Shown here piece by piece: positions 29,173-49,554 of a DNA stretch of 64,000 nt; the stretch's first letter is position 1, and each line of letters opens with the position of its first letter. Below the pieces are notes generated by a model, which worked only from the letters and a program-made list of their open reading frames with translations, had not been told where the DNA came from and made no database searches. A program made the position numbers and the translations under genes. The DNA is from Flavobacteriaceae bacterium (GTDB lineage: Bacteria; Bacteroidota; Bacteroidia; Flavobacteriales; Flavobacteriaceae), in assembly GCA_013373385.1 (NCBI GenBank), contig JABXHX010000021.1, forward strand, positions 9,499 through 73,498, read 5' to 3'.

Positions 29173-30006
29173 ATGCTAGTGAAAATTTACGGTAGCGCCC
29201 TCTTTGGCATCGAAGCTACTACAATAACAGTTGAGGTAAATATAGATAAAGGCATTGGCTACCATTTAGTTGGTTTACCAGACAATGCTGTAAAAGAAAG
29301 TTCTTACAGAATTACTGCTGCGCTTAACAATAACTCTTATAAACTTCCGGGTAAAAAAATCATTATCAATATGGCTCCTGCAGATATTAGAAAAGAAGGT
29401 GCTGCTTATGATTTAACACTGGCTATTGGAATTCTTACTGCCTCTAACCAAATTATGTCTCATAATATTAATGATTACATTATTATGGGCGAGCTCTCTT
29501 TAGACGGGAGTTTACAACCCATAAAAGGTGCTTTACCTATTGCTATTAAAGCCAGAGAAGAAGGTTTTAAGCATTTTATTTTACCAAAAGAGAATGCGAA
29601 TGAAGCTGCCATTGTAAATGATTTAGAGGTGCTTGGAGTTACAAACATTATGGAGGTAATTCATCATTTTAATGGAGACAAACTAATTGAACCAACTGTT
29701 GTTGATACGAGGGCCGAATTTTACAAGCATATCAATTTTCCTGAGTTTGATTTTTCTGATGTCAAAGGACAAGAATCGATTAAACGCTGTATGGAAATTG
29801 CTGCTGCTGGCGGACATAATATTATTCTCATTGGTCCACCAGGCTCTGGAAAAACCATGTTGGCAAAACGATTACCATCTATCTTACCACCTATGACTTT
29901 ACATGAAGCATTGGAAACTACCAAAATTCATTCTGTGGTAGGTAAAACAAAGAATAATGGTTTACTATATCAACGTCCGTTTCGTTCACCTCATCACACT
30001 ATATGA
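29173..30006 (+). pseudogene. comM: ComM/YifB Mg-chelatase-like AAA+ ATPase, 5' half, interrupted by the island
   Basis: GLPDNAVKES, NMAPADIRKEG, GELSLDG, DVKGQE, GPPGSGKTMLAK, RPFRSPHHTI, then a TGA stop. Family members continue SDVALVGGG and are about 500 aa. Confidence 0.92.
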
Positions 30007-31479
30007 GGTGTGTCGCTCATTTGTTCCGTTTTCCAAAGAAGAAGGTATATAGCCATCGGGTAAAAGTTTATATAAGTTAATTTCAATGTCATCTTTACCA
30101 ACAATTATTTTATCTACAATGATTTCTATAATACTACGCTTTTGATCACGATTTAGCGTCTCCCATTTTTCATATAAATTTTGAGCTTCTTGAAGAATAG
30201 TATCTGTTGAAGCTTTTGATGTTGAGAACCCTAATATTTCTCCTTCAAGTTCAATAATAGATTGATTAATTTGTACAACTTGTTCGTAGGGTTCAGCATG
30301 ATAGGAATGAAAAGCTTCTGTTTTAATCTGTCCTCGCACGTGTAACTCTAATAATTGTTCAATTTTTTCATTTAATTTATTCTTTTTACGTTTAAGTATT
30401 GTAAGTTCTTGTTCTTTAGTAGTAATGAGGTTTTTAATTCTCTCAAAATAGTTTTCTACATTCTGTGGAGATACCGCATAGGAATACAACTCACTTTTAA
30501 ATACTTCTTCTAAATCTTCTTTGCGGATAAAATTACCGCAACTTTTATTGCATACATAACTTGGCGTATTATATCTTGTGTACATACGTCCTCCACATAT
30601 ACAAAACACATACCCTGTGAAAAGATGAACTTTAAGGTTTAAGGGTTTTGTATTGGTTCTTTTTTGTGAAGTAATAATTTGATTAACTTGATTCCATACA
30701 GTTTCATCAACAACCGCTTCTATATTATGAATACACCATTCTTCCTTTGGCTTTGGTTTATTCTTTGAATCTTTACGATTCATAATATGTAACCCTTTAG
30801 CTACAGGCTCTTGCAATAACCGTCGTACCGTTGAATCGGTAAACTTATTTCCTTTTTTCGTTCTATACCCACGTTCATTAAGAATATTTGCAACGGTACG
30901 TTTACGCTTATACTCTAAAAAAAGTTCATACATGAGCTTTAATATTGGTGCTTCATCTTTATGAGGAACAAGTATTTTGTTTTCATAGGTAAATCCAAAG
31001 GGAGCAACGCCTCCTACATGAATACCTCGTTTTGCTCTACTTAATGAAGAGGCTTTAACTCTATCAGTAATCAGTTCGAGTTCAAGTTCAGCAATAGAAC
31101 TCATACTACGATAAAAATGTCTTCCTATTGGTGTTGACGTATCAATAGACATATCCATTGATACCAAATCAGCATTATATTCTTGGAAGTATTTTGCTAT
31201 ATTTATAAGTTCTCCCGTATTACGTGCTAATCGTGCTATCTTATTAAACACCAAACCACTTATTACTCCATTTCTAATATCTTCCATCATTTTATTGGTT
31301 TGAGGATAACTCATAATAGATTTTCCACTCATCGCTTCAAGTCGATAGATTTTGATTAGTTTCCATCCTCGTGCTTGTACAAAACTTTTAGCACGTATTT
31401 CATGGTGTAGCGCATTGTCTTTGTCTACGGAATCCTGTGAGGAAACTCTCACCCAAATCCCTACTTTTTTGTGCTTCAT
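29986..31479 (-). CDS. Large serine recombinase (integrase 1)
   Basis: GIWVRVS catalytic Ser, RLARN, GGVAPFGF recombinase domain, CICGGRM...YVC zinc ribbon, coiled coil. Confidence 0.93.
   Translation of the reverse strand: MKHKKVGIWVRVSSQDSVDKDNALHHEIRAKSFVQARGWKLIKIYRLEAMSGKSIMSYPQTNKMMEDIRNGVISGLVFNKIARLARNTGELINIAKYFQEYNADLVSMDMSIDTSTPIGRHFYRSMSSIAELELELITDRVKASSLSRAKRGIHVGGVAPFGFTYENKILVPHKDEAPILKLMYELFLEYKRKRTVANILNERGYRTKKGNKFTDSTVRRLLQEPVAKGLHIMNRKDSKNKPKPKEEWCIHNIEAVVDETVWNQVNQIITSQKRTNTKPLNLKVHLFTGYVFCICGGRMYTRYNTPSYVCNKSCGNFIRKEDLEEVFKSELYSYAVSPQNVENYFERIKNLITTKEQELTILKRKKNKLNEKIEQLLELHVRGQIKTEAFHSYHAEPYEQVVQINQSIIELEGEILGFSTSKASTDTILQEAQNLYEKWETLNRDQKRSIIEIIVDKIIVGKDDIEINLYKLLPDGYIPSSLENGTNERHTSYSVMR
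29987..30010. repeat. Inverted repeat at the comM/island junction (putative att site)
   Basis: CACCTCAT-CACACTAT-ATGAGGTG: perfect 8-bp arms with an 8-bp spacer spanning the point where comM homology ends. Confidence 0.55.
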
Positions 31480-31545: not shown

Positions 31546-34500
31546 TTACTTCTTTTTAGATGATGGTTTAGTGATGATATTTTTGAGTGCTTGATTTTTA
31601 TATTCAGCATCTTTTCCTTGCAAGAGAATACGATTTGACTTAACACGATAGCCTCTTATTCGTTTTGTATTAATTTGTTGTGGTTCTTCAAGTGAATCCA
31701 AAAAAGTGTTTAACTCGCTTGGATCAAAAAATCGCAATATTTTACCATCTTCTTTACTAATATATTCTTGTATTCGGTTTTTAATGTTTGTTAAATGTGT
31801 TCTGCCATCACATACACTACAAATGTATTCAAAGCCATGTGATATACATTTAAGAAGATTCTGTACTTCATAGTCGATACTATTGGTAACTGAAACTTCA
31901 AAGGCAATACGTCGCGTATCTTTTTCGATAACAACATCTATACGTTTTCCATCATCAAGCTGTTTTTCAATAATGGTTCTATATCCTCTTTGTGAAGCCA
32001 AAACCTTAATATAATTCTGCAACGTTCTATGCTTTCGTTCTTGTTCTTTGGCTTCAGCTTTTTCAAGAATAGTTTGTTTTTGTTCTTCAAACGAACGTTG
32101 AAGTATTGGTTTAGGAATAATTACAAGAGGAATTTCTTTTTCGGGTTCTTTGTGTACTTGTTCTGTTTGAGTGAAGTTTGCAGGGCTTGTTTGGGGTAAT
32201 AATGTATGTAATATCTGTTCAACTTTTGCTCTTGATTGAGTATACTTATTCCTACTTTGCTGGATAACATATTCTTTAAGATATGATGAATATTTGGTGT
32301 CTATTTCAGATAAGGGAAATGTATCACAATTAAAATCTTTATTTGCACCTCCAAAACGTATAATGGTTTGACCTGTTTGAAGACTTAATAAATCGCTATC
32401 ACTAAACGAAGAAAAACCACTATCAAGCTTACGTGCATCAATATCGCCTAACCTAAAACAAATACGGATATATGGATTAGCTATTACAGAGTTAAGTGTT
32501 TTAACATCTTCAATTTGTGATAGTTCTTGATGGGCAAGGGTAAGTCCAATACCATATTTTCTTGCTCCTGAGAGAATTTTACTAATTGATGGTGTAATAA
32601 AATTATGAAATTCATCACAGTAAATATAATACGGGTGGCGTTCATTTTTAACTAAGTTTTGTCTACTTTGGGCTACTTGATTAAACTTTGAAAGAAAGAG
32701 GGAACCTAATAGGTAACTGTTATCTTCTCCTATTAAACCTTGTGACAACTTGATAAGTACTATTTTCTTTTTATCAATACACTCTCTGAAATCTATTCCA
32801 TTTTTTTGAGCCAACATATAGCGGACAATTTTAGGACGGAGAAAGGTGTCAATTCGTGTAAGTAAGGGTGCAATTCTCTTTTTTAAGTAACTGTATTCAT
32901 TATTCCAATAGTAGTGTATTGACGGGTCATCAACGTTTTGTAAAAATTCTTTTCTGAATTTGTCTTCTAAAAGAAAGCGCTTTAACTCAATTAAAGTTCC
33001 ACCCCTATCACTTTCTAAAAAAGTGGTTACCGCTTGAGATAACACTGATGACATGGTATCACCCCAAGAGGTAGCATATCTTTTAAATGCTGAAACCATA
33101 TCAGAAGAAAGTACAATTTTTTCTGCATCAGTATGAGCGTGTAGCATGTTGAAGCCAGTAGGGAAATCAATGTCATAGGGGTTAATGAGGATGACATCAT
33201 TTTTACGATGTTCTGGAATACGAAGCAGCACATCTTCAACAATATCACCATGTGGATCAAATAAGGCACAGCCATTTCCAGCTTTCATGTCTTCAAGCAT
33301 CATATTTGCCATTAGCGTACTTTTTCCCGTACCTGTTGCTCCTATAATATGTGTATGACGAAGTCTCATTTCATCATTGAGCATAACCTTGGTAGCTACT
33401 CCATTATGTTTATTTGTTCCAATTAGATATTTTTGATGAATTGTTTCTTTTGGAACTTGTTTTGTTTTACCGCCTTGTAGTCCTATTTTTTTAGAAACAA
33501 TTGTTCTATTCGGATAGTGAAGAAAGGTGTTAAGCTCCTTACTATTGAGAACAAATCCTAATCGATTGCTCAAACGATGATGTAAGTTGTAGTAGTGAAA
33601 ATCGTAATTGTAGCCCTCATTCGATAGTGGTATCAGCTTGTTATGTGCTGAACGTGAAATCGTTGAAATACTACGACTCAGTTCTTGAGCTAGGTACTGA
33701 CTGCGAATATTACTATTACCCTGTGTAGCAATTCGCATCACAACAGAGAACAACGGACTTGATATTTTTTCCTTAGCACAGTGTGGCATCTCCGGAGCAT
33801 CAGAGAAAAATGAACCTCCTACTCCATCTGAAACAGCATAACTAATGTCGTTTGCAAGTGGGGAAGTAATACCTTTAAACAAGATTTGAAATACAACAAT
33901 ATCATCATTGTCTAATGATTCCATAACTGCTATTACAGATGTTAGAGGGTCAAGAACAAATGAATCTGCTGTTGATATACATCTTATATGTTCATCATTG
34001 AGAGCAAAATCAGCAATGGCAAGATCATGTTGTAAATCAAAACCAAAACTATCAATCTCAATATCACGGATAACAGCAAGAGGGAAGTAAGCCTTAAGCT
34101 GTGATTGTACTCGACCCATGTCTTGTTCACTGCAAACTATTTGAATGCTAATACTTTTATCTTTTCCTATTATTTCAAAAGAAAGTACTTGCTCAGTATA
34201 TGACAGCATATTTAAGAATTCTATATTCCTGCTCGGAAGTATCTCAGTTTCCTTTGGAAAAGAAAGTGAAATGCCTACAAGTTTTGGCTTATCCTCAAAG
34301 GCTAAAAATTTAGGTTTAATATGATCAATTTCTTGAGTAGGTTTTTCTACTTCTTTTGATGAGCTAAGAAAATTCGTAATTTGTTTAACAAACGTTGGTA
34401 CACGACCATCATCAATGCTTAGGGTACTTGATGGAAGTGAAATATAGCGAAAAGGCACATAAGGGACTTCTATATCAACAGGAGTATCAAAGTGGTAATA

Positions 34501-34569
34501 CCCACGATATTGATACTCCCATAGATAGAAATGTAGGGTTGATTTTTCACTAGCGCTTAAAGACATCAC
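31546..34569 (-). CDS. VirD4/TraD-like coupling ATPase with a C-terminal PD-(D/E)XK-like domain
   Basis: HTHIIGATGTGKS Walker A, LFDPHGD, YIYCDEFHNF Walker B, SGARKYG, AHQ; C-terminal RIDVVIE...IAFEVS. Confidence 0.85.
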   Translation of the reverse strand: MMSLSASEKSTLHFYLWEYQYRGYYHFDTPVDIEVPYVPFRYISLPSSTLSIDDGRVPTFVKQITNFLSSSKEVEKPTQEIDHIKPKFLAFEDKPKLVGISLSFPKETEILPSRNIEFLNMLSYTEQVLSFEIIGKDKSISIQIVCSEQDMGRVQSQLKAYFPLAVIRDIEIDSFGFDLQHDLAIADFALNDEHIRCISTADSFVLDPLTSVIAVMESLDNDDIVVFQILFKGITSPLANDISYAVSDGVGGSFFSDAPEMPHCAKEKISSPLFSVVMRIATQGNSNIRSQYLAQELSRSISTISRSAHNKLIPLSNEGYNYDFHYYNLHHRLSNRLGFVLNSKELNTFLHYPNRTIVSKKIGLQGGKTKQVPKETIHQKYLIGTNKHNGVATKVMLNDEMRLRHTHIIGATGTGKSTLMANMMLEDMKAGNGCALFDPHGDIVEDVLLRIPEHRKNDVILINPYDIDFPTGFNMLHAHTDAEKIVLSSDMVSAFKRYATSWGDTMSSVLSQAVTTFLESDRGGTLIELKRFLLEDKFRKEFLQNVDDPSIHYYWNNEYSYLKKRIAPLLTRIDTFLRPKIVRYMLAQKNGIDFRECIDKKKIVLIKLSQGLIGEDNSYLLGSLFLSKFNQVAQSRQNLVKNERHPYYIYCDEFHNFITPSISKILSGARKYGIGLTLAHQELSQIEDVKTLNSVIANPYIRICFRLGDIDARKLDSGFSSFSDSDLLSLQTGQTIIRFGGANKDFNCDTFPLSEIDTKYSSYLKEYVIQQSRNKYTQSRAKVEQILHTLLPQTSPANFTQTEQVHKEPEKEIPLVIIPKPILQRSFEEQKQTILEKAEAKEQERKHRTLQNYIKVLASQRGYRTIIEKQLDDGKRIDVVIEKDTRRIAFEVSVTNSIDYEVQNLLKCISHGFEYICSVCDGRTHLTNIKNRIQEYISKEDGKILRFFDPSELNTFLDSLEEPQQINTKRIRGYRVKSNRILLQGKDAEYKNQALKNIITKPSSKKK

Positions 34570-35134
34570 TTAATAGAGGTTTGCACTCTGCTTCAGATAA
34601 CACTCGAACTCCTTGGTTGTTGCAAATGTCGTTTATAACCTTAAGAACTGATTGTTGTGCATACGACATAAACATAGACGCCGTATCAATACGATAGTAG
34701 GTTACCGGATACAACTTCTGTGCTAAAATTCCTCCTACAAAAGGTATTTTACTAACAACGATTTTCCAGAAAGAGTTTTTGTAGAATAACCACCATGAGA
34801 TAAAAAAGCCATTTCCAAACTTACAAGCACAAATATCATACTGATAGCCCTTCCACGTAACACGTAGATAGATACGTAAATGTGACATGATACCTCCTTC
34901 GCTAAGATTCTTTTCCCGTATCTTAATATTCTTAATACCGTGAGATTCAAGTTCTAATTTCAACCGTTTATAAAACTCTTTTGAAGAATAATTAAAGTTA
35001 TCAATCAGTGTATTCCAGTTAGAATGGTACTCCTTTAAAGGTTCGTTAAAAAGGTGTTTAAGGATAAGGAATGTAATAATTCCGTAAACTAGGTACATAC
35101 CGTACTCAAAAAAGTAATAGATAAATTCGTTCAT
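34550..35134 (-). CDS. Hypothetical membrane protein coupled to the ATPase gene
   Basis: 194-aa ORF with an N-terminal hydrophobic helix; overlaps the ATPase start by 20 nt. Confidence 0.7.
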   Translation of the reverse strand: MNEFIYYFFEYGMYLVYGIITFLILKHLFNEPLKEYHSNWNTLIDNFNYSSKEFYKRLKLELESHGIKNIKIREKNLSEGGIMSHLRIYLRVTWKGYQYDICACKFGNGFFISWWLFYKNSFWKIVVSKIPFVGGILAQKLYPVTYYRIDTASMFMSYAQQSVLKVINDICNNQGVRVLSEAECKPLLSDVFKR

Positions 35135-35282
35135 AATATGTGTTTTTAGTTAATACTATGAGCTAAAGTAGTTGTGAAAAGAGTCTTTGTATATATGAAA
35201 TTGAGATGTGGTAATATCTGTGGGATATGTAGCTTATGTAATGTGCTGAAATCAAAAAACCGCCCAAACAAGGACAATTCTG

Positions 35283-35678
35283 TTACAGTACTAATTGATC
35301 AAATCTGGTTTTTACTTCTTGTCTATAGTGACGTGACACCTTAAATCGATACTCTCCACTCCAAAGGTATATCCATTCGTATCTTCTATCAATTTTGGAT
35401 ATGTTCACAATGGTATCCTTAGCAATAAATATAAAATTATCATTTATGCTGACTACATCTTTTAATGATAACCTTTTATAGTATTCAACTCCTCCAACGG
35501 CAATAAACTTAAGGTAATTCTTCTTTATATTAAAACTTGTAGCAAAGAGTATGTTATGAAATTGAATTTTAAATTCTTTGGCAATCATTTTCCCACTCTG
35601 TCTGTCAATCAAACTAACATTTTGAGTTGGTTGTTTATATAGCCAACATTCATTTTTATTCAATTCTACCGTTAACAT
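35283..35678 (-). CDS. Stand-alone LytTR-like DNA-binding protein
   Basis: FHNILFATS..NYLKF..YYKRLSLKDV..NFIFIAKDTIVNISKI..FKVSRHY follows the LytTR pattern; no receiver domain. Confidence 0.55.
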   Translation of the reverse strand: MLTVELNKNECWLYKQPTQNVSLIDRQSGKMIAKEFKIQFHNILFATSFNIKKNYLKFIAVGGVEYYKRLSLKDVVSINDNFIFIAKDTIVNISKIDRRYEWIYLWSGEYRFKVSRHYRQEVKTRFDQLVL

Positions 35679-35739: not shown

Positions 35740-36723
35740 CTAAAGAATACCTCTATTAACCATTTCCCAGTATGATTTTCCCTGAGGTGTTAATTCACAT
35801 CCTTTTTCATATATAGCTGCCCAATACATGTCTTTTTTCCCTTCGGGCAATTCTTTCTTTATAGGGATAACGAGGTTAACACGATTGTAAAGTTTAAGGA
35901 TAGTAAATTTTTCAACATTCTTAGTAATTGCTGTTTTTTCAGTATGCTCAAATGTCCTATTTAATTTAAACTTATAATCTGGGTGTTTAAATAGTATTGT
36001 AATTTGCCTAAGCTCATCTGGAATAATTTGAGATTTAATTTTTCTAAGTGAAATATATCTTCTAACGTTAGTTATAAAAATAGGACGTTGCGCTTTTTCT
36101 CCCATAGCCTTATCAATATATCCATAAACATTACCAGGAGTTATTTCTCCTATAATACTTGCAGCACCACCTTCAAGAGCATGACAAAATAGTTTAGTAA
36201 AGATTCCTTCGCCATCAATTTCTGTAGAATATTGATTAGCTGCTGAGGCAGCAAGAATAGTTACTCCTTCTTTAATTCTTACTAAATCACTACTAATAAA
36301 ATCTTTTGCAAAACTTCCTGAATGACAACAATCAAAAATTATAATCTTATTCCGAGCAGGTGAATTATTAACCTCTTGTAAAATGTCATTCATTGATAAA
36401 CCATGATATCCTTTTTCATTTTCAGTGGTTACTAAATACCCCTGTCCTTTTCGAATAGCTCCATGTCCAGCAAAATAAAATAAAGAAGTTTCTCTTTCAT
36501 CTCTAAATAATTCTTCAATCTTTTTCCTTAAAAAGTCTGTCGTAATAATATTCTTTTCTCCTGAAATTATTGTTTCTGTGTGAAAGTTTTTTTCTTTTCC
36601 ATTAATTCCTTCATTATAAGATAATACTTTTTCAATCTTATTAGCATCATTAATGCATCCAAATAATGATGTTTTGTGGTCATAGTGATTGATTCCTACA
36701 ATTAAAGCTTTTCTCCCACCCAT
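35740..36723 (-). CDS. Caspase-like protease (peptidase C14), type IV Thoeris-like effector
   Basis: RKALIVGINHY, L.GCINDA, FYFAGHG (His) and FDCCHSG (Cys) dyad, GIFTKLFCHALEGGAA; extra C-terminal domain of about 90 aa. Confidence 0.92.
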   Translation of the reverse strand: MGGRKALIVGINHYDHKTSLFGCINDANKIEKVLSYNEGINGKEKNFHTETIISGEKNIITTDFLRKKIEELFRDERETSLFYFAGHGAIRKGQGYLVTTENEKGYHGLSMNDILQEVNNSPARNKIIIFDCCHSGSFAKDFISSDLVRIKEGVTILAASAANQYSTEIDGEGIFTKLFCHALEGGAASIIGEITPGNVYGYIDKAMGEKAQRPIFITNVRRYISLRKIKSQIIPDELRQITILFKHPDYKFKLNRTFEHTEKTAITKNVEKFTILKLYNRVNLVIPIKKELPEGKKDMYWAAIYEKGCELTPQGKSYWEMVNRGIL

Positions 36724-36725
36724 TA

Positions 36726-37127
36726 TTATACTACTTTTTTTATTGCTTCAACTATTGATTTTCCTTGCCATTTAACAATTTCATCGGCATTGTTTTTAAC
36801 TAGTATAGATGTTTTTTCAGCACCCCAAGGTTCAATTGCTATTATAGGTTTCCCTTGCTCAATAGCTATATTTATTTCTTTTTGTATCCACTTACTATAG
36901 TTAGCATATACACCTGCTAAAATTAGAATGCAATGTGTTCCTTTTATTTTATTTTCAATAGCAACTTTAAGTTGTTTGTCTGTTCCATTTGTATGTACTG
37001 GATCATTTTTAGGAACAGAATAGTCATAAAATAATAAGTTTTGGTCTTTTAATAATTTGGTAATTTTATCGTAGGCATCTCCATAAGCCCATGAATGACT
37101 GATAAACAATCGATATATCTTTGGCAT
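36726..37127 (-). CDS. TIR-domain protein, Thoeris ThsB/MTH538-like
   Basis: RLFISHSW, DYSVP, SKWIQKEI (catalytic Glu), GKPIIAI, ADEIVKW. Confidence 0.9.
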   Translation of the reverse strand: MPKIYRLFISHSWAYGDAYDKITKLLKDQNLLFYDYSVPKNDPVHTNGTDKQLKVAIENKIKGTHCILILAGVYANYSKWIQKEINIAIEQGKPIIAIEPWGAEKTSILVKNNADEIVKWQGKSIVEAIKKVV

Positions 37128-37140
37128 AATATTTTTGTTA

Positions 37141-37707
37141 TTAGTGAATTGTAGGGCTTTGACCTCTTAACCAATCACTCAATTGAACATATTTATTTAC
37201 ACTTTCATTAATCCAAAGAACTTTTTTATGCGGTATCATTTTAGTTCCTTCTTTAGTTATGTATGGGTATACTGACAAAAATTCTTGTCCTTTAAAACTT
37301 GACGATTCATAATCAGTAATAGGAAGGATTGAGCATCTACTCTCTTTACCATCAACAAAACCCAATTCCCAAGGCATCCATTTTGAATTGGAAGCATTTT
37401 CAGAAGTGGCATAGACAAGAGACTTTGATTGCCTCATTCTATTCCTTATATGATCTACGGTTCTTTTGGTTACACTACTTCTACTAAGATGTGGATCTAT
37501 AATCCAATCCACGTAAACTGTAAATCCTAAATCTGATAATTCTAAAAACAACCCTTCGATAAATTGTTTATCTTTATAGCTATGTGATAAAAAAATATCA
37601 AATTGAGTCAATTTTTTACTTTCATTTAGTACACTACTAAATGTTCTTTTTCCCTTTAATCCACTACTTGATAGATTTCTTAGATAATCCTTTGTATAAA
37701 ATCCCAT
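37141..37707 (-). CDS. TIR-domain protein (second, TIR_2-like)
   Basis: FDIFLSHSYKD, VYVDW, SKWMPWELG (catalytic Glu), ILPI. Confidence 0.88.
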   Translation of the reverse strand: MGFYTKDYLRNLSSSGLKGKRTFSSVLNESKKLTQFDIFLSHSYKDKQFIEGLFLELSDLGFTVYVDWIIDPHLSRSSVTKRTVDHIRNRMRQSKSLVYATSENASNSKWMPWELGFVDGKESRCSILPITDYESSSFKGQEFLSVYPYITKEGTKMIPHKKVLWINESVNKYVQLSDWLRGQSPTIH

Positions 37708-37710
37708 TTT

Positions 37711-38517
37711 TTATTTATTGTTTATTAATTCTTTAATATTTACTCTCCTTGCTATCAATTTTGATTGACTATTACCAGATAACATACCTCTTGCATTTTT
37801 GTTTGAAGGAGAAGGAGCTTCAAAAACCTTTTTTTCAAATTCTATTAAGTCTATAAAAACTGTCACATTATCCGACCAATCATGTATCAGAACATTTCCG
37901 CTAGATTTAGACACCCTTAGACTAGAACTAGCTGAAATATTTACTGAACGAGATTTGATACCTGTAAGATCAGTTTTTAATAAAATTTCTGATGATTTTG
38001 ATTTTGATTGAGCCATGAAGGCTTTTTTTGCTACTGTAACAGAGGTGACAAGATATGTGTCATCCCAAACCAATTGCTTTCCTTTAGAGTTAATCTCTTT
38101 TTCTAAAAAAAGAAGATCATCCAATTCGCGTTTATCACAATCAATAGCTAAAAGAAATATAGCTCCTTCAGAAAAAAATTGGATATGTAAATCTTTTTCA
38201 ACCTTAGGAAGTGATTTTTTTCCAAGATTAGCACCGCCTTTCAGTCCAAATTGAATATTAACTTCATCCTTACTTGAAAACCTATATGTGTCAGGTGTTC
38301 CTGAAAATTCTGGTATATTAAAATCCACTCCTAACTTTTCAAGAGAGGTTATCTTTTTAAAACTTCCATATGGAAGTTTCTTACCAAAAAGAGGTCTTCT
38401 GGCATTGGGAAATTTAATAATATCTCCAACTTCAATTTTTTCGCCCGGTAGGTATACTGCTATTTTACCTAGCTCTTCAGCAATTTTTTTAGAATATTGT
38501 ATTTGTAAATCTGACAT
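37711..38517 (-). CDS. Gasdermin-like pore-forming protein (putative)
   Basis: 268 aa from MSDLQ. AVYLPGEKIEVGDII, F..ITSL..LGVDF, YLVTSVTVAKK and VTVFIDLIEF echo gasdermin strand motifs, with Ser/Gly-rich amphipathic stretches and a short C-terminal tail. First gene of an operon with a caspase. Confidence 0.65.
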   Translation of the reverse strand: MSDLQIQYSKKIAEELGKIAVYLPGEKIEVGDIIKFPNARRPLFGKKLPYGSFKKITSLEKLGVDFNIPEFSGTPDTYRFSSKDEVNIQFGLKGGANLGKKSLPKVEKDLHIQFFSEGAIFLLAIDCDKRELDDLLFLEKEINSKGKQLVWDDTYLVTSVTVAKKAFMAQSKSKSSEILLKTDLTGIKSRSVNISASSSLRVSKSSGNVLIHDWSDNVTVFIDLIEFEKKVFEAPSPSNKNARGMLSGNSQSKLIARRVNIKELINNK

Positions 38518-38619
38518 AATAGAATCATTTTGATAAAACAAAATTGAATCTATTTATACTTTTATACTTCGTATTATATGATGATTTTTATGTAATCTAA
38601 TATGGGTAGTTATCTCTAA

Positions 38620-39252
38620 TTAAATCTGTATGTAACCGCTCTTTATAGCAAATTTTGTTAATTCAATAGAGTTTCTAACTCCAGTCTTGGCAATAAGGTT
38701 TCTTCTATGGGTGTTAACTGTAGCCTCAGAAACATACAATTTTTCAGCAATAATAGAAGCTTTATCACCGTTGGCTATAAGTTTTAAAACTTCTATTTCC
38801 TTTTTGGTAAGTTCAATTTCTCCTATAACATTTTTTGATCTCATACTATTCATAACAGTATTTTTAACATCTTCTCCAAAATACCCTTTATTATCATTCA
38901 GTGTGTTAATAGCAGTAATCAATTCTTCTTTTCCTTTGTTTTTTAGAATATACCCATTTACTCCAGCCTCCATCATTTTACGAATAAAACCTATTTCATC
39001 ATGCATCGTTAAAATAAGCACCTTCGTCTTTGGGAATTTTTCTTTTATAATCTTTGTTAAGTCTAGACCATCAATTTCTGGCATTTCAATATCAAGTACT
39101 GCAATATCTACTTCATTTTTTTCAAGTAATGAAAGAGCTTCTAGTCCATTTTCAGCAGTACCTACAATACAAATATTATCATTTTCGGTAACAAGAGAAG
39201 TTAATCCTTCAATGATTATTTTATGGTCGTCAGCAATTATAATTTTAGTCAT
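38620..39252 (-). CDS. NarL/LuxR family response regulator
   Basis: IIADDH, VLDIEMP, LTMH, YILK; LTKKEIEVLKLIANG...TVNTHRRNL helix-turn-helix. Confidence 0.95.
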   Translation of the reverse strand: MTKIIIADDHKIIIEGLTSLVTENDNICIVGTAENGLEALSLLEKNEVDIAVLDIEMPEIDGLDLTKIIKEKFPKTKVLILTMHDEIGFIRKMMEAGVNGYILKNKGKEELITAINTLNDNKGYFGEDVKNTVMNSMRSKNVIGEIELTKKEIEVLKLIANGDKASIIAEKLYVSEATVNTHRRNLIAKTGVRNSIELTKFAIKSGYIQI

Positions 39253-39263
39253 TGTTATATATT

Positions 39264-41357
39264 TTAAGATAAAGGGATATCAATTGAAATCATAGTCCCA
39301 ATATTAATTGTTGAGTCGATTAAAAAATTTCCGTTAAGAGCATCAACCCTTGATTTTACATTTATAATTCCAATACCAGTGTCCTCTTCCTTTGATAAAT
39401 TAAATCCGACACCATCATCTTCAATAATAATATTGAGTATTCCCTTGTCTTTAATTAACTGTATCGTAATCTCTTTTGCTTTAGCATGTTTAAGCACATT
39501 ACTAACTAGCTCTTGTACAATACGATACACGCCTAACTCTATATCATTACCAAGTCTATTATCAACCCCATAAGTAATTAAGACAACAGATATTTGCTTA
39601 CTTTTTTCTAAAGTATCTTTAAGGTTTTCAAGAGCAGTAACTAAACCAAACTTTGTAAGAAGTCCAGACCCTAGATCATGAGAAATCTTTCGAACCTCAC
39701 TACAAGCATCATCAAGTAATTCATTTGCTTTTTGATATTGTGTTATATTTTCTTTCTTAAGATTTTCAACACTTTCTTCGACGGATTTAAAGTACATTTT
39801 TACTGTTGATAAAATACTTCCTATTCGATCATGTAAATCCTCTGAAATCCTCTTTCTCTCTTTTTCTTGTAAATCAAGCATATTATTAATCGCATTAATT
39901 TCTTGGCTTTTTAAAAAACTATCTATCTCTTGTTGTTTAATTTTTATTTGATTATCTCTAAGTTTAATTTTTTCTTTTTGAGACCTATTCCTTAAAGCTA
40001 AATAAGACAAAATCATAACTAATAATAATCCTATAGCTAGACTAATAATAACTGTTTTTTTTCGTTGATTATCTGCTTTGAATTTTTCAAGGTTTATTTT
40101 AGTAATCTCTTGAGTATTTTTAATTTCTTTATATCTAGCATTTGTCTGTACGGCCTCTTTATATTGCTTTTCTATTTTGTTTTTAAGAATGATATACTTA
40201 TTACTATAATTTAACGCTGTTTTGTATTCTTTTAACGAAGTATGGCAGAGAGATAAGTCATTAAGTATTTTTAACTGACTTATTACATATCCTGATTTTT
40301 TTGATATCTCAAGAGCTTTATTATAGAACTTAACTGATTGCAAATAATTAGATTTTAAATAATAAATATCTGCCATATTCATAGTTGTCGATAAGGTAGT
40401 TTGAATATTTGCTTTAACTAGATTACTCTTTTGGTAATATAAAAGAGCTAAGTCTAGATTTCCTTTTTGATGGTATAATGCCCCTATATTATTTAAAATT
40501 CGAGTATCTTTACTTTCTATCCCTAGCTCTTTTTTTAACTTTTGAGCTTTCTCGTAATAAAAAAGAGACCTATTAAATTTTTCCAGTTCATAAAAACATA
40601 TTCCAAAATTATTATAAACTTTCACTAATTCATATTTGTCATTATAGGTTAAAAAAATCCTTTCACTTTCATTAAGGTGCTCAATACTTTTATTATAGTC
40701 TTCAAGCTTAATATATAATGTTGAAAGACCTAACAATGTAAATGCTAATCCTTTATTATTTTTTAACTGCTTTCTGATATCAAGACTTAAATGATAACTT
40801 TTAGCAGATAATTCATAGAGTCCAAGTTCAGAATAAATAAATCCTAAGTTGCTTGAGACTAAAGCAACTATATTTTCTTTTTTTAATTCTTTAAAATTCT
40901 TAAATGACTTTTTAGTATAGTCTAAGGCTAAATTCAAATTGCCAATATTTTTATATATCTCTCCTAGCTGATTTTGTGCTCTACCAATTCCATATTGATT
41001 ATTAATTCTTTTTTCCCTTTCTAAAACCTCTAAATAAATTTTCTCAGACTTTTTAAATTCTTTTTGATAAATATAAATAGCTCCTAATCTATTTAAGCCT
41101 GTTGTTTTTCCCTTATAAAAAGAAAGAGAATCACTTATTTTTATTGCTCTAGAAGCATACTCAATTGCTAATGAAAAATTTGTTTTATTATATTCCCATG
41201 CTAAATCATTAAGAATATTTACAGTAGAAGTATCAATTATTTTTTCTTTTCTTAATTTATCTTCAAGATTATTAATAGTAGAAATGTTTTGCCCATAGCA
41301 ACTACTAATGGCTATTAACAACCTAGTTAAAAACAAAAAAAGATAATGTTTTTTCAT
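39264..41357 (-). CDS. TPR-repeat sensor histidine kinase (HisKA_3 type)
   Basis: Signal-like N-terminus, many TPR repeats, one TM helix, ERKRISEDLHD, QELVSNVLKHA, DDGVGF, GIGI. Confidence 0.92.
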   Translation of the reverse strand: MKKHYLFLFLTRLLIAISSCYGQNISTINNLEDKLRKEKIIDTSTVNILNDLAWEYNKTNFSLAIEYASRAIKISDSLSFYKGKTTGLNRLGAIYIYQKEFKKSEKIYLEVLEREKRINNQYGIGRAQNQLGEIYKNIGNLNLALDYTKKSFKNFKELKKENIVALVSSNLGFIYSELGLYELSAKSYHLSLDIRKQLKNNKGLAFTLLGLSTLYIKLEDYNKSIEHLNESERIFLTYNDKYELVKVYNNFGICFYELEKFNRSLFYYEKAQKLKKELGIESKDTRILNNIGALYHQKGNLDLALLYYQKSNLVKANIQTTLSTTMNMADIYYLKSNYLQSVKFYNKALEISKKSGYVISQLKILNDLSLCHTSLKEYKTALNYSNKYIILKNKIEKQYKEAVQTNARYKEIKNTQEITKINLEKFKADNQRKKTVIISLAIGLLLVMILSYLALRNRSQKEKIKLRDNQIKIKQQEIDSFLKSQEINAINNMLDLQEKERKRISEDLHDRIGSILSTVKMYFKSVEESVENLKKENITQYQKANELLDDACSEVRKISHDLGSGLLTKFGLVTALENLKDTLEKSKQISVVLITYGVDNRLGNDIELGVYRIVQELVSNVLKHAKAKEITIQLIKDKGILNIIIEDDGVGFNLSKEEDTGIGIINVKSRVDALNGNFLIDSTINIGTMISIDIPLS

Positions 41358-42168: not shown

Positions 42169-43044
42169 ATGAATAAAATTTATACCATAGACTGGAGAAT
42201 AACTGGGCTTTGCAATGAAAGATGTCCTTTTTGTTATGGTCCAGAAAAACATATTCATCCACCAATAGATATAATTAATAAAATAACTAGCGCCATCTGT
42301 AATAGTAACTTTAATGTTGTTCGATTTTCTGGAGGAGAGCCTCTTTTGATTTCTAATCTAAGCGAAGTCATTAAAAGACTTAATACTAAAAAAATAAAAG
42401 TTGTTTTATCTACTAATGGTTTTTCTTACTTAAAAAAGAAAAATGATTTTGAACCAAATATTAGCAAATTAAACCTTTCATTAGATGGGTACGATCAGAA
42501 AAGTCATAGTATAAATGGAAGAAGTAAAAAATCTTTTACAGACATTATTAATATTCTTGAATATTATAATTCTTTTTCAAAAAATCTTTTTTCAATAAAA
42601 ATAGGAACAATCATCACATCAAAAAATATATCAGTCAAATTTCTTTTAAAGATGTACTATTTTTTAAAACAGTACTCAATAATTGATAGGTGGAAGATTT
42701 ATCAATATGTCCCTGAAGGTCCCATCATAGATATGAACTTATCGGTTAATGATGATTCTTTTAATGAATTAGAATCCACTTTTTTTAAAGCCATTAAACC
42801 TTCTAGTGATAGAAATGATTTTACAATAAAGTTTAGCTCTATACTTCAAAGAACCCAAGCTTATCTCATAATTCAACCGTATGGAAAAGTTTTTATCCCA
42901 ATCCATAATGGTAATTATACTAAAGAAGTTTATCTCGGAAATATTTTGGAAGATAATATAACTACTATAATTAATAATTGGTTTAAAAAAGGAGGAGATA
43001 GAAAAAAACACCTAAACAATAATAGCATTTTAAATAATGAATAA
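42169..43044 (+). CDS. Radical SAM protein, viperin-like
   Basis: CNERCPFC (CxxxCxxC), FSGGEPLL, STNG, LSLDG, KIGTII..N, RWKIYQ, AYLIIQPYGKV; no SPASM cysteines. Confidence 0.88.
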   Translation: MNKIYTIDWRITGLCNERCPFCYGPEKHIHPPIDIINKITSAICNSNFNVVRFSGGEPLLISNLSEVIKRLNTKKIKVVLSTNGFSYLKKKNDFEPNISKLNLSLDGYDQKSHSINGRSKKSFTDIINILEYYNSFSKNLFSIKIGTIITSKNISVKFLLKMYYFLKQYSIIDRWKIYQYVPEGPIIDMNLSVNDDSFNELESTFFKAIKPSSDRNDFTIKFSSILQRTQAYLIIQPYGKVFIPIHNGNYTKEVYLGNILEDNITTIINNWFKKGGDRKKHLNNNSILNNE

Positions 43045-44032
43045 AATAATACTTGATAAAATAGATAAGAAAATTCTATTTGAAATAGATAGAAACCCAA
43101 CGATTACAATCGAAAGTTTAGCAAAAAAAACTAGCTCAACTATCGAAAATGTTTCTTTTAAAATTTCTAAACTCTTTAAAACAGGAATAATTAAGTATTC
43201 TATGCCTATAGTTAATCTAGATAAATTAGGGTTCAGTATTTTTCTTTTTCATATTAAAATAAGTGATATTAATAAATCAAAAATCATTATTGATGTTTTT
43301 ATAACCAATGAACATATTGCTTGGCTAGTTAAAACCTCTAAAAAAAATGTTTTATTGGGAGCATTATTTGCTAAAAGTGCTAATCAATGCAACGAAATTC
43401 TAATTTCAATAACACAATCTACCAACAACAATATCAAAGAAATCCAGACATCTTTAGTGTATGAAAAATATGTTCTTGGTCAACGATATTTAATAATTGA
43501 TGATAAAATAACAGATTTTATGTTTGATAATTCAAGAATAGCCTATGACGGAGTTGAAAGGGATTTTCTTACTGTAACTGAAAGAAACATACTGTTTAAT
43601 ATAAGAGAATTAAAATCAAATTCTTTAAATAATATAACTGAACACACAAACTATAATTTAACTCAGATTAATCAATTAATAAGAGATTTAAAACGTAGAG
43701 ATATAATTACAAAATTTCAACCTGTTTTTGACGTAAAGAAAATGAATTATAAATGGTTTTTAATTTCATTAAAAACAGTCTGGTTAACAAAAGAAATTAA
43801 AAACAAATTTATTCAATATCTCCATTCTATTACTAAAATTGTTCACATAAACTGTATGCTTGGCACCTGGGATATTAATTTTGAAATTCATGTTAAAAAC
43901 AAAAAAGAGACAGAAGATATTTTAACTGTTATAGAAGAAAAGTTTCCAAATTTAATAAGTCAAAAAGATGTACAAGAAATATTGGAAGAGTATAAATTCA
44001 ATTTTTTAATTGACTGTGTTTTAAAATCTTAA
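43037..44032 (+). CDS. Tandem Lrp/AsnC-type regulator (two wHTH + RAM repeats)
   Basis: LDKIDKKIL...KL.KTGII...VNLDKLG and LTVTERNIL...L.RRDII..F.PVFDVKKM...MLGTWD repeats. Confidence 0.78.
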   Translation: MNKIILDKIDKKILFEIDRNPTITIESLAKKTSSTIENVSFKISKLFKTGIIKYSMPIVNLDKLGFSIFLFHIKISDINKSKIIIDVFITNEHIAWLVKTSKKNVLLGALFAKSANQCNEILISITQSTNNNIKEIQTSLVYEKYVLGQRYLIIDDKITDFMFDNSRIAYDGVERDFLTVTERNILFNIRELKSNSLNNITEHTNYNLTQINQLIRDLKRRDIITKFQPVFDVKKMNYKWFLISLKTVWLTKEIKNKFIQYLHSITKIVHINCMLGTWDINFEIHVKNKKETEDILTVIEEKFPNLISQKDVQEILEEYKFNFLIDCVLKS

Positions 44033-44034
44033 TT

Positions 44035-44478
44035 ATGAATCTCTTAATTCATTCTAGCTTAGACCACAAAGATAAATTACTTGACTGTGCCAATAAATTT
44101 AAAAACATTGGTTTATCAATCATATTCCCAGAATTAAAAAGATTTCAACATATTAGGGACAAACAGAATAATCAATTATTATTCAACAAAATAAAAAACA
44201 AATTATCTATTGAAAATATAAAAAATGTAGAAAAATGTGATTATCTACTTATCGTAAATCCTAATCATAGAGGTATCGAAAATTATATCGGAGGGAATTC
44301 CTTTTTAGAAATGGTTGTTGCTTTTTATTTAAAAAAACCTATTTTCTTGACTAATCCGATACCTGAAAATTTACCATACACAGAAGAGATAAAATCTTTC
44401 TTTCCTTTAGTAATTTGTTTGAAAAATATAACTAAAAAATCATGGGAAAATTATGTCAAAACCGCGTATATTCGTTAG
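44035..44478 (+). CDS. Nucleoside 2-deoxyribosyltransferase (NDT)-like Rossmannoid protein
   Basis: IKNVEKCDYLLIVN, YIGGNSFLEM (conserved Glu helix) and AFYLKKPIFL resemble NDT/nucleotide N-glycosidase folds. Confidence 0.55.
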   Translation: MNLLIHSSLDHKDKLLDCANKFKNIGLSIIFPELKRFQHIRDKQNNQLLFNKIKNKLSIENIKNVEKCDYLLIVNPNHRGIENYIGGNSFLEMVVAFYLKKPIFLTNPIPENLPYTEEIKSFFPLVICLKNITKKSWENYVKTAYIR

Positions 44479-45391
44479 TTCAACATATTATGACTTAAAG
44501 TTTATAAGAGGTACTTTAGAAACCTTTATAAATGAGTATGGCTTTGAACCAGTTCTTTTTGAAAAAGGGCATGTAACCTACAATAATGATTTTTCAATAG
44601 AATATTCTTCCTACAAAGAAGTCACAAAATCTGATATATTGATATTTGTTATTGGTGGTTCTTATGGAACAAAAGCAAATAAAAAAAATGAAATAGATTT
44701 CAACACATATAATTCTATTTCAAAAGAAGAGTATAAGGTCGCATTAGAAAACAATATCCCTACTTATACTTTTATTCTCGCAGAGATAGTAAATGAATAT
44801 GAAATTTTTAAACTTAATAGGAATAAAGATATTACATATTCAACTACAAAAACAATTGAAATTTTTAAGCTTCTAGACTTTATTTATGGTTTAAATGAAA
44901 ACAATGTTGTAACTCCTTTTAATAGTATTTATGATATTTTAAATTTTTTAAAAGTGCAATGGGCTGGATTATTTCATGAGTTTTTAATAAATAAAAAAGA
45001 GCAATTAAATATAAACAATATAAAGAATGCTATTAATGAATTAAAAGATATTGCATCTCGGTTAGAAAAATATAATGAAAAGATAATTCTACAAATAGAT
45101 GCCAAATCAGCCAAGGAATTACTTCAAGAAAAACAAGAACTATTACAAAGAAAAGAATTAGAAAAATCTTTTAATCAATTTTGCGATACAACTTTTGGTA
45201 AGTTTATACTTAAATATTTTGACTTTGACAACGACCAACAATGGGTTGACATGATAATAAAAAGTGAAAATCTTATCTCTTTTTTGAAAGCTTGTAAGGT
45301 ACCTCAAAAACAAATCAGCTATATAGTACAAAATGATTCTTCTGAAAATGAATTTTTAAATGTCAAAAAAATAATAGAAGGATTTATTTAG
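44453..45391 (+). CDS. DUF4062 domain protein (TIR/NDT-like fold) with a C-terminal coiled coil
   Basis: RIFVSSTYYDL..IR, EV.KSDILIFVIGGSYG, SISKEEY..A; predicted coiled coil around INNIKNAINELKDIASRLEK. Confidence 0.85.
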   Translation: MSKPRIFVSSTYYDLKFIRGTLETFINEYGFEPVLFEKGHVTYNNDFSIEYSSYKEVTKSDILIFVIGGSYGTKANKKNEIDFNTYNSISKEEYKVALENNIPTYTFILAEIVNEYEIFKLNRNKDITYSTTKTIEIFKLLDFIYGLNENNVVTPFNSIYDILNFLKVQWAGLFHEFLINKKEQLNINNIKNAINELKDIASRLEKYNEKIILQIDAKSAKELLQEKQELLQRKELEKSFNQFCDTTFGKFILKYFDFDNDQQWVDMIIKSENLISFLKACKVPQKQISYIVQNDSSENEFLNVKKIIEGFI

Positions 45392-46872: not shown

Positions 46873-47661
46873 TTAGATAGGATAGTTAGCAGTCAATACT
46901 TCAGTCTTTACTTTTCGCCTTACCCCTGCTACTGCTTTTGAAGCAGAAATTATTTTGGTAACTGTCTTAGTGTACCAACCATTCTTTTTTATATACTGAT
47001 CAAGAATTTCTGATGGATAAGAACTCAAGAGAAATTTTCCTTGTACACGGGATAACGTTTCAAGTAATCGTGTGTAATCTTCTTTTGTGTATCCACTATA
47101 ATGTCCCATATTTGAATTGAAATACGGAGGATCAACATAATGAAAAGCATCAACGGTATTTCGATTTGCAATTACCTTACAGGCATCATTATTTTCAATT
47201 TGTACTCCTTTAAGGCGTTTTGCAATAGATTCATCAAAAATGAGTTTTCTGTTCCAAAATGATTTTACTCGTTTATTATACTTATCATACCCCCATGAGC
47301 CTATCTGACATGAAAAGCCCATGTTGGTAGCAATGTAGAATGCCCATGCCTGTTGTAGTTTACTAAACAAGTGTGGCATTTTGTAAATACTCATTGCGAC
47401 ATTGTATGCTACACGAGAGAATAAGGTTGCTTCAACTTTTGATTTAAGCTTATCAAAATCTGTCTGCACTACTTCGTAAAAATTTACTACCATATTATTG
47501 ATATCATTAATCGTTTCTGCTTTTGATTTTTCCTTTGCAAAGAATATTGCTCCTCCGCCAAAAAAGGCTTCAGTATATATTTTGTGTGGTGGAATGAGCG
47601 GAAGAATGGTTGGAATCATATTAATTTTTCCGCCATAGTATGATATGGGAGTTTTAGGCAT
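46873..47661 (-). CDS. Orphan DNA adenine methyltransferase (Dam/D12 class)
   Basis: YYGGK, EAFFGGGA (motif I), INDIN, YVDPPY (motif IV), KFLLSSY, EVLTANY; no adjacent endonuclease. Confidence 0.92.
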   Translation of the reverse strand: MPKTPISYYGGKINMIPTILPLIPPHKIYTEAFFGGGAIFFAKEKSKAETINDINNMVVNFYEVVQTDFDKLKSKVEATLFSRVAYNVAMSIYKMPHLFSKLQQAWAFYIATNMGFSCQIGSWGYDKYNKRVKSFWNRKLIFDESIAKRLKGVQIENNDACKVIANRNTVDAFHYVDPPYFNSNMGHYSGYTKEDYTRLLETLSRVQGKFLLSSYPSEILDQYIKKNGWYTKTVTKIISASKAVAGVRRKVKTEVLTANYPI

Positions 47662-49524: not shown

Positions 49525-49554
49525 ACAGCCAGTATGATGGTTTCCTTAACGAAC

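Follow-up and report, generated by a model that had tools for sequence, protein, structure and literature searches.

A divergent gasdermin encoded in one operon with a type IV Thoeris-type TIR-caspase pair in a flavobacterium: a possible second-messenger route to a bacterial pore former

Animal innate immunity relies heavily on TIR signalling, caspases and gasdermins, and each of the three has separately been traced to bacterial anti-phage systems. To our knowledge, the natural triggers that activate bacterial gasdermins are mostly unknown. A stretch of 64,000 nucleotides from a Flavobacteriaceae bacterium (contig JABXHX010000021.1, positions 9,499 to 73,498; called the window in the following) contains four adjacent genes for a gasdermin-like protein, two TIR proteins and a caspase-like protease and raises the question whether a TIR-made nucleotide could, via the caspase, control a gasdermin. 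The first-pass annotation of this DNA had proposed such a chain and had suspected that it was not described as one operon. Type IV Thoeris and bacterial gasdermins are both known; for a combination of gasdermin, TIR and caspase in one operon we found no description in the literature searched.

The four open reading frames are present as annotated, all on the minus strand and separated by 3 nt (A/B), 13 nt (B/C) and 2 nt (C/D). Gene A (37711-38517, from ATG) encodes the gasdermin-like protein of 268 aa; a TTG at 38541 is an alternative start that would give 276 aa, and the N-termini of the homologues favour the ATG. It is followed by gene B (37141-37707) for a ThsB-type TIR protein of 188 aa, by gene C (36726-37127) for a short TIR protein of 133 aa of the Thoeris IV type and by gene D (35740-36723) for a caspase-like protease of 327 aa, which is the only protease encoded in the cluster. 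The motifs that had been read from the translations were recovered, and the numbered residues are invariant across orthologues: PWE114LG in B, IQKE84I in C, and GH87G and DCC133HSG in D. A sigma-70 promoter scan yielded fewer sites than shuffled sequence; the sigma-70 consensus does not apply to Bacteroidota.

In the published type IV Thoeris a short TIR protein is combined with a caspase having a C-terminal domain, the signal molecule is N7-cADPR, and Arg is required at P1 of the protease substrate (bioRxiv 10.1101/2024.10.24.620036); the caspase, ThsE, is the only effector (Rousset et al., Science 2025 / bioRxiv 10.1101/2024.10.24.620036). By sequence comparison, proteins C and D have this architecture, as the first-pass annotation had claimed. 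Protein D matches Pfam Peptidase_C14 (1e-18), its dyad H87/C133 being invariant across orthologues, and it is a full-length homologue, the C-terminal domain included, of the caspases of two-gene operons on plasmids from E. coli, P. aeruginosa and Thiolapillus (40-42% identity); to the caspase encoded beside a 124-aa TIR protein on an E. coli IncI plasmid it is 40% identical over residues 4-327 (2e-87). In a tblastn search against plasmids 49 records covered at least 80% of the length of D, and the presence of a TIR gene next to the D-type caspase was verified for E. coli, P. aeruginosa, Thiolapillus and E. faecalis. This search exposed the Thoeris family; a word-based search with the C-terminal domain of D had returned only 12 close relatives. 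The domain itself, given as about 90 aa in the first-pass annotation, has to be corrected to about 115 aa (roughly residues 210-327), since the match of Pfam C14 stops at residue 187 and that of NCBIfam at residue 209. With the AF2 model of D (pLDDT 90.4) Foldseek found MALT1, caspases including caspase-11, and metacaspases; a solved ThsE structure was not among the matches of this fold search, in which the C-terminal domain gave no informative match.

Protein C, whose gene ends 2 nt upstream of the caspase gene, belongs to Pfam ThsB_TIR (2e-20) and shares 56% identity (1e-52) with the TIR protein of the two-gene TIR-caspase operon on the Thiolapillus plasmid; its E84 is invariant among orthologues. 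Protein B matches Pfam TIR_2 (2e-7), the ThsB model of PADLOC (6e-57) and PDB entry 8BTN_B (1.3e-38), which we take to be the ThsB of a type I Thoeris, and its E114 is invariant in 9 orthologues. Both TIR proteins have therefore kept the catalytic Glu, as annotated. On an Enterococcus faecalis plasmid a TIR protein 47% identical to B is encoded next to a D-family caspase, and this plasmid holds a trio of TIR, caspase and B-type TIR genes.

Protein A was without a match in Pfam-A, NCBIfam and PADLOC-DB 2.0 (E <= 0.1), the last of which may hold no model for bacterial gasdermins, and a direct sequence search of the PDB gave nothing either, the only hits of the direct searches being spurious short LRR matches to residues 46-70. 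When its AF2 model (pLDDT 81.8) was compared with the PDB by Foldseek, ranks 1-17 were all gasdermin-family structures, led by 8SL0 (E 2e-5), with a probability of 1.00 for ranks 1-3 and of at least 0.93 through rank 10, at low TM-scores of 0.30-0.36. A widened sequence profile (A3) reached 7N50_A, annotated 'Gasdermin', the bacterial gasdermin from Bradyrhizobium, with E 9.3e-7. Judged by the fold of the model, protein A is a divergent bacterial gasdermin, and the assignment made from the translation alone is supported by Foldseek and by the profile match to 7N50. Next to the gene of a distant relative of A there is one for a TPR-CHAT protease. Distant gasdermin-like proteins from the loci L032 and L033 were also without a match in PADLOC and did not provide a bridge to known bacterial gasdermins.

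The first-pass annotation had suggested a search for synteny of gasdermin, TIR and C14 genes. An A-family gene was recovered at 28 further loci, all from Bacteroidota. It was never seen without a D-type caspase gene: at each of these 28 loci, which belong to other genomes, the two share a cluster, and the arrangement is therefore not due to chance. TIR genes are present in 28 of the 29 loci, often inserted between the gasdermin and caspase genes, and are interchangeable between loci, at least eight families being represented. A preliminary count, according to which TIR genes were confined to 8 of 28 loci, was overturned by Pfam annotation of the remaining neighbours.

Upstream of the gasdermin gene, genes for a TPR histidine kinase and a LuxR regulator were found in all 27 loci for which upstream sequence is available. 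In the window the LuxR/NarL-type response regulator of 210 aa (38620-39252, minus strand; Pfam Response_reg and GerE) is encoded 102 nt upstream of gene A, and the histidine kinase of 697 aa (39264-41357, minus strand; Pfam HisKA_3 and HATPase_c) is composed of a signal peptide, a TPR region, one membrane helix at about residues 435-451 (a hydrophobic stretch), HisKA_3 and HATPase_c, in this order. The constancy of kinase and regulator and the swapping of at least eight TIR families had both escaped the first-pass annotation.

The closest relatives of D (53-55% identity; loci L034 and L035) are encoded together with kinase, regulator and TIR, and a gasdermin gene is absent. In the caspase tree the gasdermin-linked caspases are not monophyletic, which led us to reject a single origin of the gasdermin-caspase pairing. 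From the gasdermin-less nearest relatives and the lack of monophyly we conclude that the caspase alone is probably a sufficient effector and the gasdermin an add-on.

The linker of protein A (residues 235-248) is predicted to be disordered, has a low pLDDT and is variable in sequence, whereas the last 18-20 or so residues, which come after it, form a conserved segment; within the linker R243|G244 is a candidate cleavage site. Arg makes up 1.9% of the residues in the A-family gasdermins. It is present within the first 12 residues of the tail in 9 of 11 gasdermins that are paired with the caspase clade containing the plasmid Thoeris caspases, as compared to 2 of 17 gasdermins of the other caspase clade, several of which have no Arg in the tail at all. 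A strictly Arg-specific cut can therefore not be general.

We propose, with a probability of about 0.55, that the four genes form a composite abortive-infection operon, in which a type IV Thoeris system (C, B and the ThsE-type D) is joined to gasdermin A as a protease-gated membrane effector, and that the TIR signal activates the caspase, the caspase cleaves the gasdermin tail and a pore opens. The whole unit would be under the control of the TPR histidine kinase and the LuxR response regulator. A TIR protein would sense phage infection and convert NAD+ to an ADP-ribose-derived signal, in the case of C presumably N7-cADPR, as judged by orthology only. Once bound to the conserved domain at the C-terminus of the caspase, the signal would switch on Arg-specific proteolysis, and the protease would cut the disordered linker of A at the predicted site R243|G244, so that an inhibitory peptide of about 25 aa is released from the C-terminus. 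The gasdermin core would then oligomerize to form membrane pores, with cytoplasmic proteins as possible further substrates of the caspase, and the cell would die before the phage cycle is completed. The coupling of TIR, caspase and gasdermin cleavage is strengthened by the synteny and by the Arg in the gasdermin linker, and it is tempered by the closest relatives of the caspase, which work without a gasdermin. Somewhat more tentatively, at slightly less than even odds, the unit may be regarded as a complete, modular pyroptosis-like cascade composed of interchangeable TIR sensors, a nucleotide messenger, a caspase and a gasdermin as its dedicated substrate, and armed at the level of transcription by a two-component system with an envelope-sensing kinase.

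It is possible, if unlikely, that the operon instead holds two self-sufficient systems, of which Thoeris kills by indiscriminate proteolysis, whereas the gasdermin is not a substrate of the caspase, is controlled separately, for example by kinase/regulator-driven expression or by a protease encoded elsewhere, and adds to or synergizes with Thoeris. The canonical two-gene type IV Thoeris defends alone, the caspases of L034 and L035 have no gasdermin next to them, and in L032 a distant gasdermin-like gene is found with kinase and regulator and without a caspase. There is also a precedent in the operon shared by a type IV Thoeris and a clade F Pycsar system, which act in synergy without cross-activation of the effectors (Nucleic Acids Res 2026, PMC13069673). 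Against such independence speak the invariable company of the A family and the D caspase type (28 of 28 loci) and the location of the TIR genes between the gasdermin and the caspase genes at distances of only 2-13 nt. Moreover, it is a protease encoded next door that frees the characterized bacterial gasdermins (Johnson et al.), for which role the cluster offers only D, and the occurrence of the Arg motif in the linker follows the division of the caspases into clades.

What surrounds the operon bears on the question whether its role is defence at all. As the first-pass annotation had inferred, the copy in the window lies on a mobile island: the cluster is located beside a gene for a large serine recombinase (29986-31479, minus strand; Pfam Resolvase, Recombinase and Zn_ribbon_recom), which abuts a truncated comM/ChlI gene. 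The latter is cut off at 30006 (plus strand, within 29173-31479; Pfam Mg_chelatase covers 1-85 of 207) and marks the left border of the island. No 3' half of comM turned up in the window, and hence the right border could not be placed; a search for direct repeats at the island ends gave only repeats at chance level. The island also holds the defence-type genes DUF4062 and Dam methylase.

Downstream of the caspase gene, at a distance of 61 nt, there is a gene for a LytTR DNA-binding protein of 131 aa (35283-35678, minus strand; Pfam LytTR 1.7e-7), followed by a terminator-like hairpin (35256-35281). A homologue of the LytTR protein is absent from all 28 related loci; the gene is specific to the window. 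Further downstream are the genes for a membrane protein of 194 aa (34550-35134, minus strand) and, overlapping with it, a HerA/TrwB-type ATPase of 1007 aa (31546-34569, minus strand; PADLOC mad8 1e-20 and HerA, Pfam TrwB_AAD_bind and DUF87). The pair, a possible part of the system, directly follows the caspase gene in four loci (L001, L006, L021 and L038).

Quite improbable is a primary function other than anti-phage defence, namely a circuit for programmed death or lysis run by the two-component system, in which the periplasmic TPR sensor reads an envelope or population cue and induces caspase and gasdermin, the TIR proteins being NAD-consuming or signalling accessories. Kinase and regulator are indeed the most constant neighbours (27 of 27), and they accompany gasdermin-only and caspase-only variants as well, a LuxR-type regulator being encoded also next to the gasdermin-less caspase and TIR genes of L034 and L035 and in the caspase-less L032; in several genomes the flanks are housekeeping rather than defence genes (in L018 acyl-CoA dehydrogenase and thiolase). 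Against this stands that the TIR-caspase pair has its orthologues in a system whose activity against phages is proven by experiment, that the swapping of TIR families resembles the diversification of the Thoeris ThsB sensors and that the copy in the window resides on an integrative island with DUF4062 and Dam methylase.

That protein A has a gasdermin-like fold and no pore role, serving as phage sensor, regulator or decoy substrate of the caspase, is highly improbable: it has no counterpart of the N-terminal Cys carrying the palmitoyl group in the Runella gasdermin (C127 is its sole Cys), matches no gasdermin HMM and reaches only low TM-scores, but the palmitoylation is reported to be supportive and not essential (Johnson et al.), the best structural matches in Foldseek are pore-state gasdermins of bacteria, animals and fungi, and bacterial gasdermins agree with A in size, in the conserved short C-terminal segment past a disordered linker and in having a protease as neighbour.

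If the proposed chain from TIR via caspase to gasdermin holds true, the three would be joined in one bacterial death pathway of sensor, messenger, caspase and gasdermin, and second-messenger control of the caspase-gasdermin axis would be present in prokaryotes. Protein A would be the first gasdermin known to be under the control of a small-molecule-activated protease, and the operon the first Thoeris with a two-tier effector, first protease and then pore; it would show how Thoeris systems take on new effector layers, and bacterial gasdermins would gain a defined, experimentally tractable trigger. The natural series of loci with and without gasdermin, with and without caspase and with at least eight TIR families offers ready comparisons of how the parts depend on each other.

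Among the known systems type IV Thoeris shares with the operon a short TIR protein with catalytic Glu encoded directly upstream of a caspase that has about 320 aa, a His/Cys dyad and a conserved C-terminal domain. The operon differs in that it is headed by a gasdermin-family gene, in that the genes for the TPR histidine kinase and the LuxR regulator invariably precede it, and in its variable complement of TIR proteins (at least eight families across related loci).

With the bacterial gasdermin systems (Johnson et al. 2022; Wein et al. 2025) it has in common a gasdermin fold of about 265 aa with flexible linker and short C-terminal segment, and an adjoining C14 caspase-like protease, the described systems employing caspase-like, CHAT or trypsin-like proteases. 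In the described systems a repeat, NACHT or CARD sensor module accompanies the protease, either as a fusion or as a partner, and the protease is thought to sense directly, whereas the protease here is from a family activated by a TIR-made small molecule; in addition, protein A has no N-terminal Cys and is too divergent for the Pfam, PADLOC and NCBIfam models.

In the hybrid of type IV Thoeris and Pycsar, too, the type IV Thoeris is part of a larger operon that includes a second effector system. Each half of the hybrid has its own signal synthase and effector, whereas the gasdermin here has no activator of its own beyond the Thoeris caspase.

In animal pyroptosis (caspase-1/4/5/11, gasdermin D) the order of events is the one proposed here: a sensor acts on a caspase, which removes an inhibitory segment from a pore former. 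In the bacterial operon a diffusible NAD-derived nucleotide would take the place of the CARD/PYD scaffold in activating the caspase, the inhibitory part would be a tail of about 25 aa rather than a domain of 200 aa, and the residue expected at P1 is Arg instead of Asp.

The operon combines type IV Thoeris with a bacterial gasdermin system and carries a two-component regulator that is conserved. Its four minus-strand genes, separated by gaps of 3, 13 and 2 nt, encode the gasdermin-like protein A (37711-38517; 268 aa; the chosen ATG agrees with the N-termini of homologues), the TIR protein B (37141-37707; 188 aa; PADLOC ThsB model, 6e-57), the short TIR protein C (36726-37127; 133 aa; Pfam ThsB_TIR, 2e-20) and the caspase D (35740-36723; 327 aa; Peptidase_C14, 1e-18). 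Genes, order and component identities are those claimed in the first-pass annotation, and the catalytic residues that it pointed out (E114 in B, E84 in C, the H87/C133 dyad in D) are each invariant among orthologues; the C-terminal part of D, put there at about 90 aa, is in fact a non-caspase region of about 115 aa.

Protein A gave no match in Pfam, PADLOC, NCBIfam or a direct PDB sequence search. Among 5.8 billion proteins it has 73 relatives, all about 265 aa long and unannotated, and those with organism names are from Flavobacteriaceae. An AlphaFold2 model from the alignment of these relatives has a mean pLDDT of 81.8, with low confidence only at residues 93-104, 186-190 and 235-248. Compared with the PDB by Foldseek, it retrieved gasdermin-family structures at all of ranks 1-17 (best E 2e-5; probability 1.00 for ranks 1-3, at least 0.93 through rank 10), as anticipated from the gasdermin fold first proposed for A. 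They include the crystal structures from Bradyrhizobium, Runella and Vitiosangium, the bacterial gasdermin oligomer and pore (8SL0, 9A84), the Trichoplax protein, GSDMA3, GSDME, GSDMD, GSDMB and fungal RCD-1. The TM-scores are low (0.30-0.36), which calls for some caution, though probably it is because the model has long extended hairpins resembling a pore state. As sequence evidence independent of the fold comparison, an exhaustive HMM search with the A-family profile yielded 1,170 cluster representatives at E <= 1e-3; widened with 87 representatives, the profile matched 7N50_A, the Bradyrhizobium gasdermin, along about 185 positions (E 9.3e-7). One of the distant relatives, with 25% identity (pairwise E 4e-10), is encoded directly upstream of a 1,228-aa TPR-CHAT protease, a canonical partner of bacterial gasdermins (Johnson et al.). 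From the predicted fold and the profile matches we conclude that A belongs to the bacterial gasdermin superfamily, within which it is divergent.

In type IV Thoeris, as the two-gene TIR and caspase architecture is named, the TIR makes N7-cADPR, which is thought to be bound via the C-terminal domain of the caspase, and the activated caspase cuts indiscriminately after arginine (Rousset et al., bioRxiv 10.1101/2024.10.24.620036). A tblastn search of PLSDB plasmids with D matched 139 records, 49 of which cover at least 80% of the protein at about 38-42% identity, C-terminal domain included. In E. coli IncI, P. aeruginosa and Thiolapillus records a TIR gene of 124-138 aa lies about 10 nt upstream of the caspase gene; D and the E. 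coli plasmid caspase share 40% identity over residues 4-327 (2e-87), C and the Thiolapillus TIR 56% (1e-52). TIR B differs from C in being ThsB-like (PDB 8BTN_B, 1.3e-38); a 47%-identical copy flanks a TIR and caspase pair on an E. faecalis plasmid, and in a Flavobacteriaceae genome (L037) another copy comes after a caspase that lacks a gasdermin. With these homologues, B, C and D make up a two-TIR type IV Thoeris module, which supports the earlier reading. A Pediococcus damnosus plasmid (L040, 1582-4049) carries a TIR, a TPR protein and a B-type TIR without a caspase; this trio resembles the TPR-S protein (ORF family c17) that four Flavobacteriaceae loci encode between gasdermin and caspase.

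The suggested synteny search for gasdermin, TIR and C14 operons, for which a single genome from each prokaryotic species was scanned for A-family proteins, found 28 further loci: 25 in Flavobacteriaceae, two in Chryseobacterium and one in a Saprospiraceae MAG. ORF clustering and annotation gave a constant core of TPR histidine kinase, LuxR regulator, gasdermin and caspase, with the caspase in 28 of 28 loci and kinase and regulator in all 27 that have upstream sequence. One or more TIR-family genes, belonging to eight or more sequence families in all, occur in 28 of 29 loci (window counted), L018 being the sole exception. The genes around the core vary (c-numbers are clustered ORF families): the window has GSDM-TIRc7-TIRc12-caspase-c13-c15, nine loci, mostly from Aquimarina, have GSDM-caspase-c8-TIRc9-c10-c11-c6, Chryseobacterium has GSDM-TIRc7-caspase-c38-TIRc39-c40, and GSDM-(TPR-S protein)-caspase-TIRc4 and GSDM-caspase-TIRc16-c24 also occur.

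The kinase with periplasmic TPR and its LuxR regulator (38620-41357 in the window) precede the gasdermin gene in L001-L028 wherever upstream sequence exists and recur in L032, L034 and L035, also beside gasdermin-less caspase and TIR loci and beside a caspase-less gasdermin-like gene, which suggests that death effectors of Flavobacteriaceae are under two-component transcriptional control. In Aquimarina litoralis (L022, 5311-5754) the gasdermin gene is apparently truncated or frameshifted to a 147-aa ORF, the caspase is intact, and a CAP12/Pycsar-type TIR gene lies between regulator and gasdermin. In Flavivirga aquimarina (L005, 7350-11649) the operon is like that of the window except that about 4.3 kb with three ORFs (545, 440 and 300 aa), probably a mobile-element insertion, separates its two TIR genes. 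In Chryseobacterium (L024/L025, 8366-9773) the caspase is followed 3' by a 109-aa unknown protein, a ThsB-type TIR and a 162-aa protein (GITGHQ…GGTGDIV) that by sequence alone looks SLOG/LOG-like and has no Pfam or PADLOC match.

The window's copy of the operon is on an integrated element of a 2.94-Mb genome, the mobile island claimed earlier: a comM/ChlI gene is cut short at 30006 by a large serine recombinase gene that starts there (29986-31479). Rightward follow radical-SAM, DUF4062, Dam methylase, RadC, TraG-like ATPase, second serine recombinase and Rep_O-like genes; the window yielded neither the right border nor the 3' half of comM. Of the two regions with a serine recombinase (29173-31479 and 46873-51959), the second also holds the genes for RadC, Dam methylase, the Rep_O-like protein and the TraG-like ATPase; one or two tandem integrative elements are likely. 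At 31546-35134 the gene of a 194-aa membrane protein overlaps that of a 1007-aa HerA/TrwB-type ATPase (PADLOC mad8, 1e-20) with a putative nuclease-like C-terminal part; the pair, also found 3' of the caspase in L001, L006, L021 and L038, could be one more effector, or else a module of its own for defence or transfer. The plus-strand cluster at 42169-45391 (radical-SAM protein, winged-helix regulator, 147-aa unknown protein, DUF4062 protein) is possibly a second defence system on the island, by analogy with the Swarozyc system, in which DUF4062 was recently reported to be a TIR-like NADase (bioRxiv 10.64898/2026.05.01.722283). Two very large plus-strand ORFs at 54419-62601 (1133 and 1591 aa), the first with a YD-repeat-like end (…YDSFGRLEYVRD…), suggest an Rhs/YD-type polymorphic toxin locus.

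A gasdermin gene within a TIR and caspase operon is not described in the full texts searched, namely the type IV Thoeris paper, the 2025 systematic survey of TIR systems, both bacterial gasdermin papers, the 2026 modularity paper and recent reviews, with subscription journals and supplements little covered.

A cascade from the TIR signal via the caspase to the gasdermin is plausible, and we infer it with a probability of about 0.55. A-family gasdermins always occur with a D-type caspase (28/28), the cluster encodes no other protease, and the TIR genes are wedged between those of gasdermin and caspase with spacers of 2-13 nt. The tail of A, which follows the last core strand (…FEKKVF232), consists of a variable low-confidence linker and then a terminal segment of about 18-20 aa that is conserved, an anatomy that in model and alignment appears as expected of a gasdermin substrate. 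Arginine is rare in A-family gasdermins (1.9%); it occurs within the first 12 tail residues (YRG, HRG, ARG) in 9 of 11 gasdermins paired with the caspase clade that contains the Arg-specific Thoeris caspases and in only 2 of 17 of the other clade, a correlation among phylogenetically non-independent loci. Six tails of the second clade have no arginine at all; if these are cleaved, their caspases must differ in specificity. In the window, the candidate cut in A would fall between R243 and G244 and release 25 residues.

The main rival, that two independent systems share one operon, we consider unlikely; it draws on caspases that occur without a gasdermin. In 401 genomes sampled from the window's own family, a full-length D-type caspase occurs in seven and the gasdermin in only two. 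The caspases closest to D (L034 and L035; 53-55% identity), with which it groups in a maximum-likelihood tree (support 100/98), are accompanied by kinase, regulator and TIR and lack a gasdermin, and the plasmid Thoeris caspases are nested among gasdermin-linked ones. This implies repeated gain or loss of the gasdermin, or exchange of the Thoeris cassette beside it, and the caspase alone is probably a competent effector. Conversely, L032 has a distant gasdermin-like gene with kinase and regulator and without a caspase. Type IV Thoeris and Pycsar in one operon can act in synergy without cross-activation (PMC13069673), so that a shared operon by itself is no proof of a cascade.

The cascade from TIR to gasdermin is a specific hypothesis, conserved in many genomes and open to existing assays. 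The hallmark of Thoeris systems is an effector that stays constant while the TIRs diversify, and the A-family loci show the same combination. In known bacterial gasdermins the tail has about 20 residues (Johnson et al.), close to the 25 predicted to be released from A.
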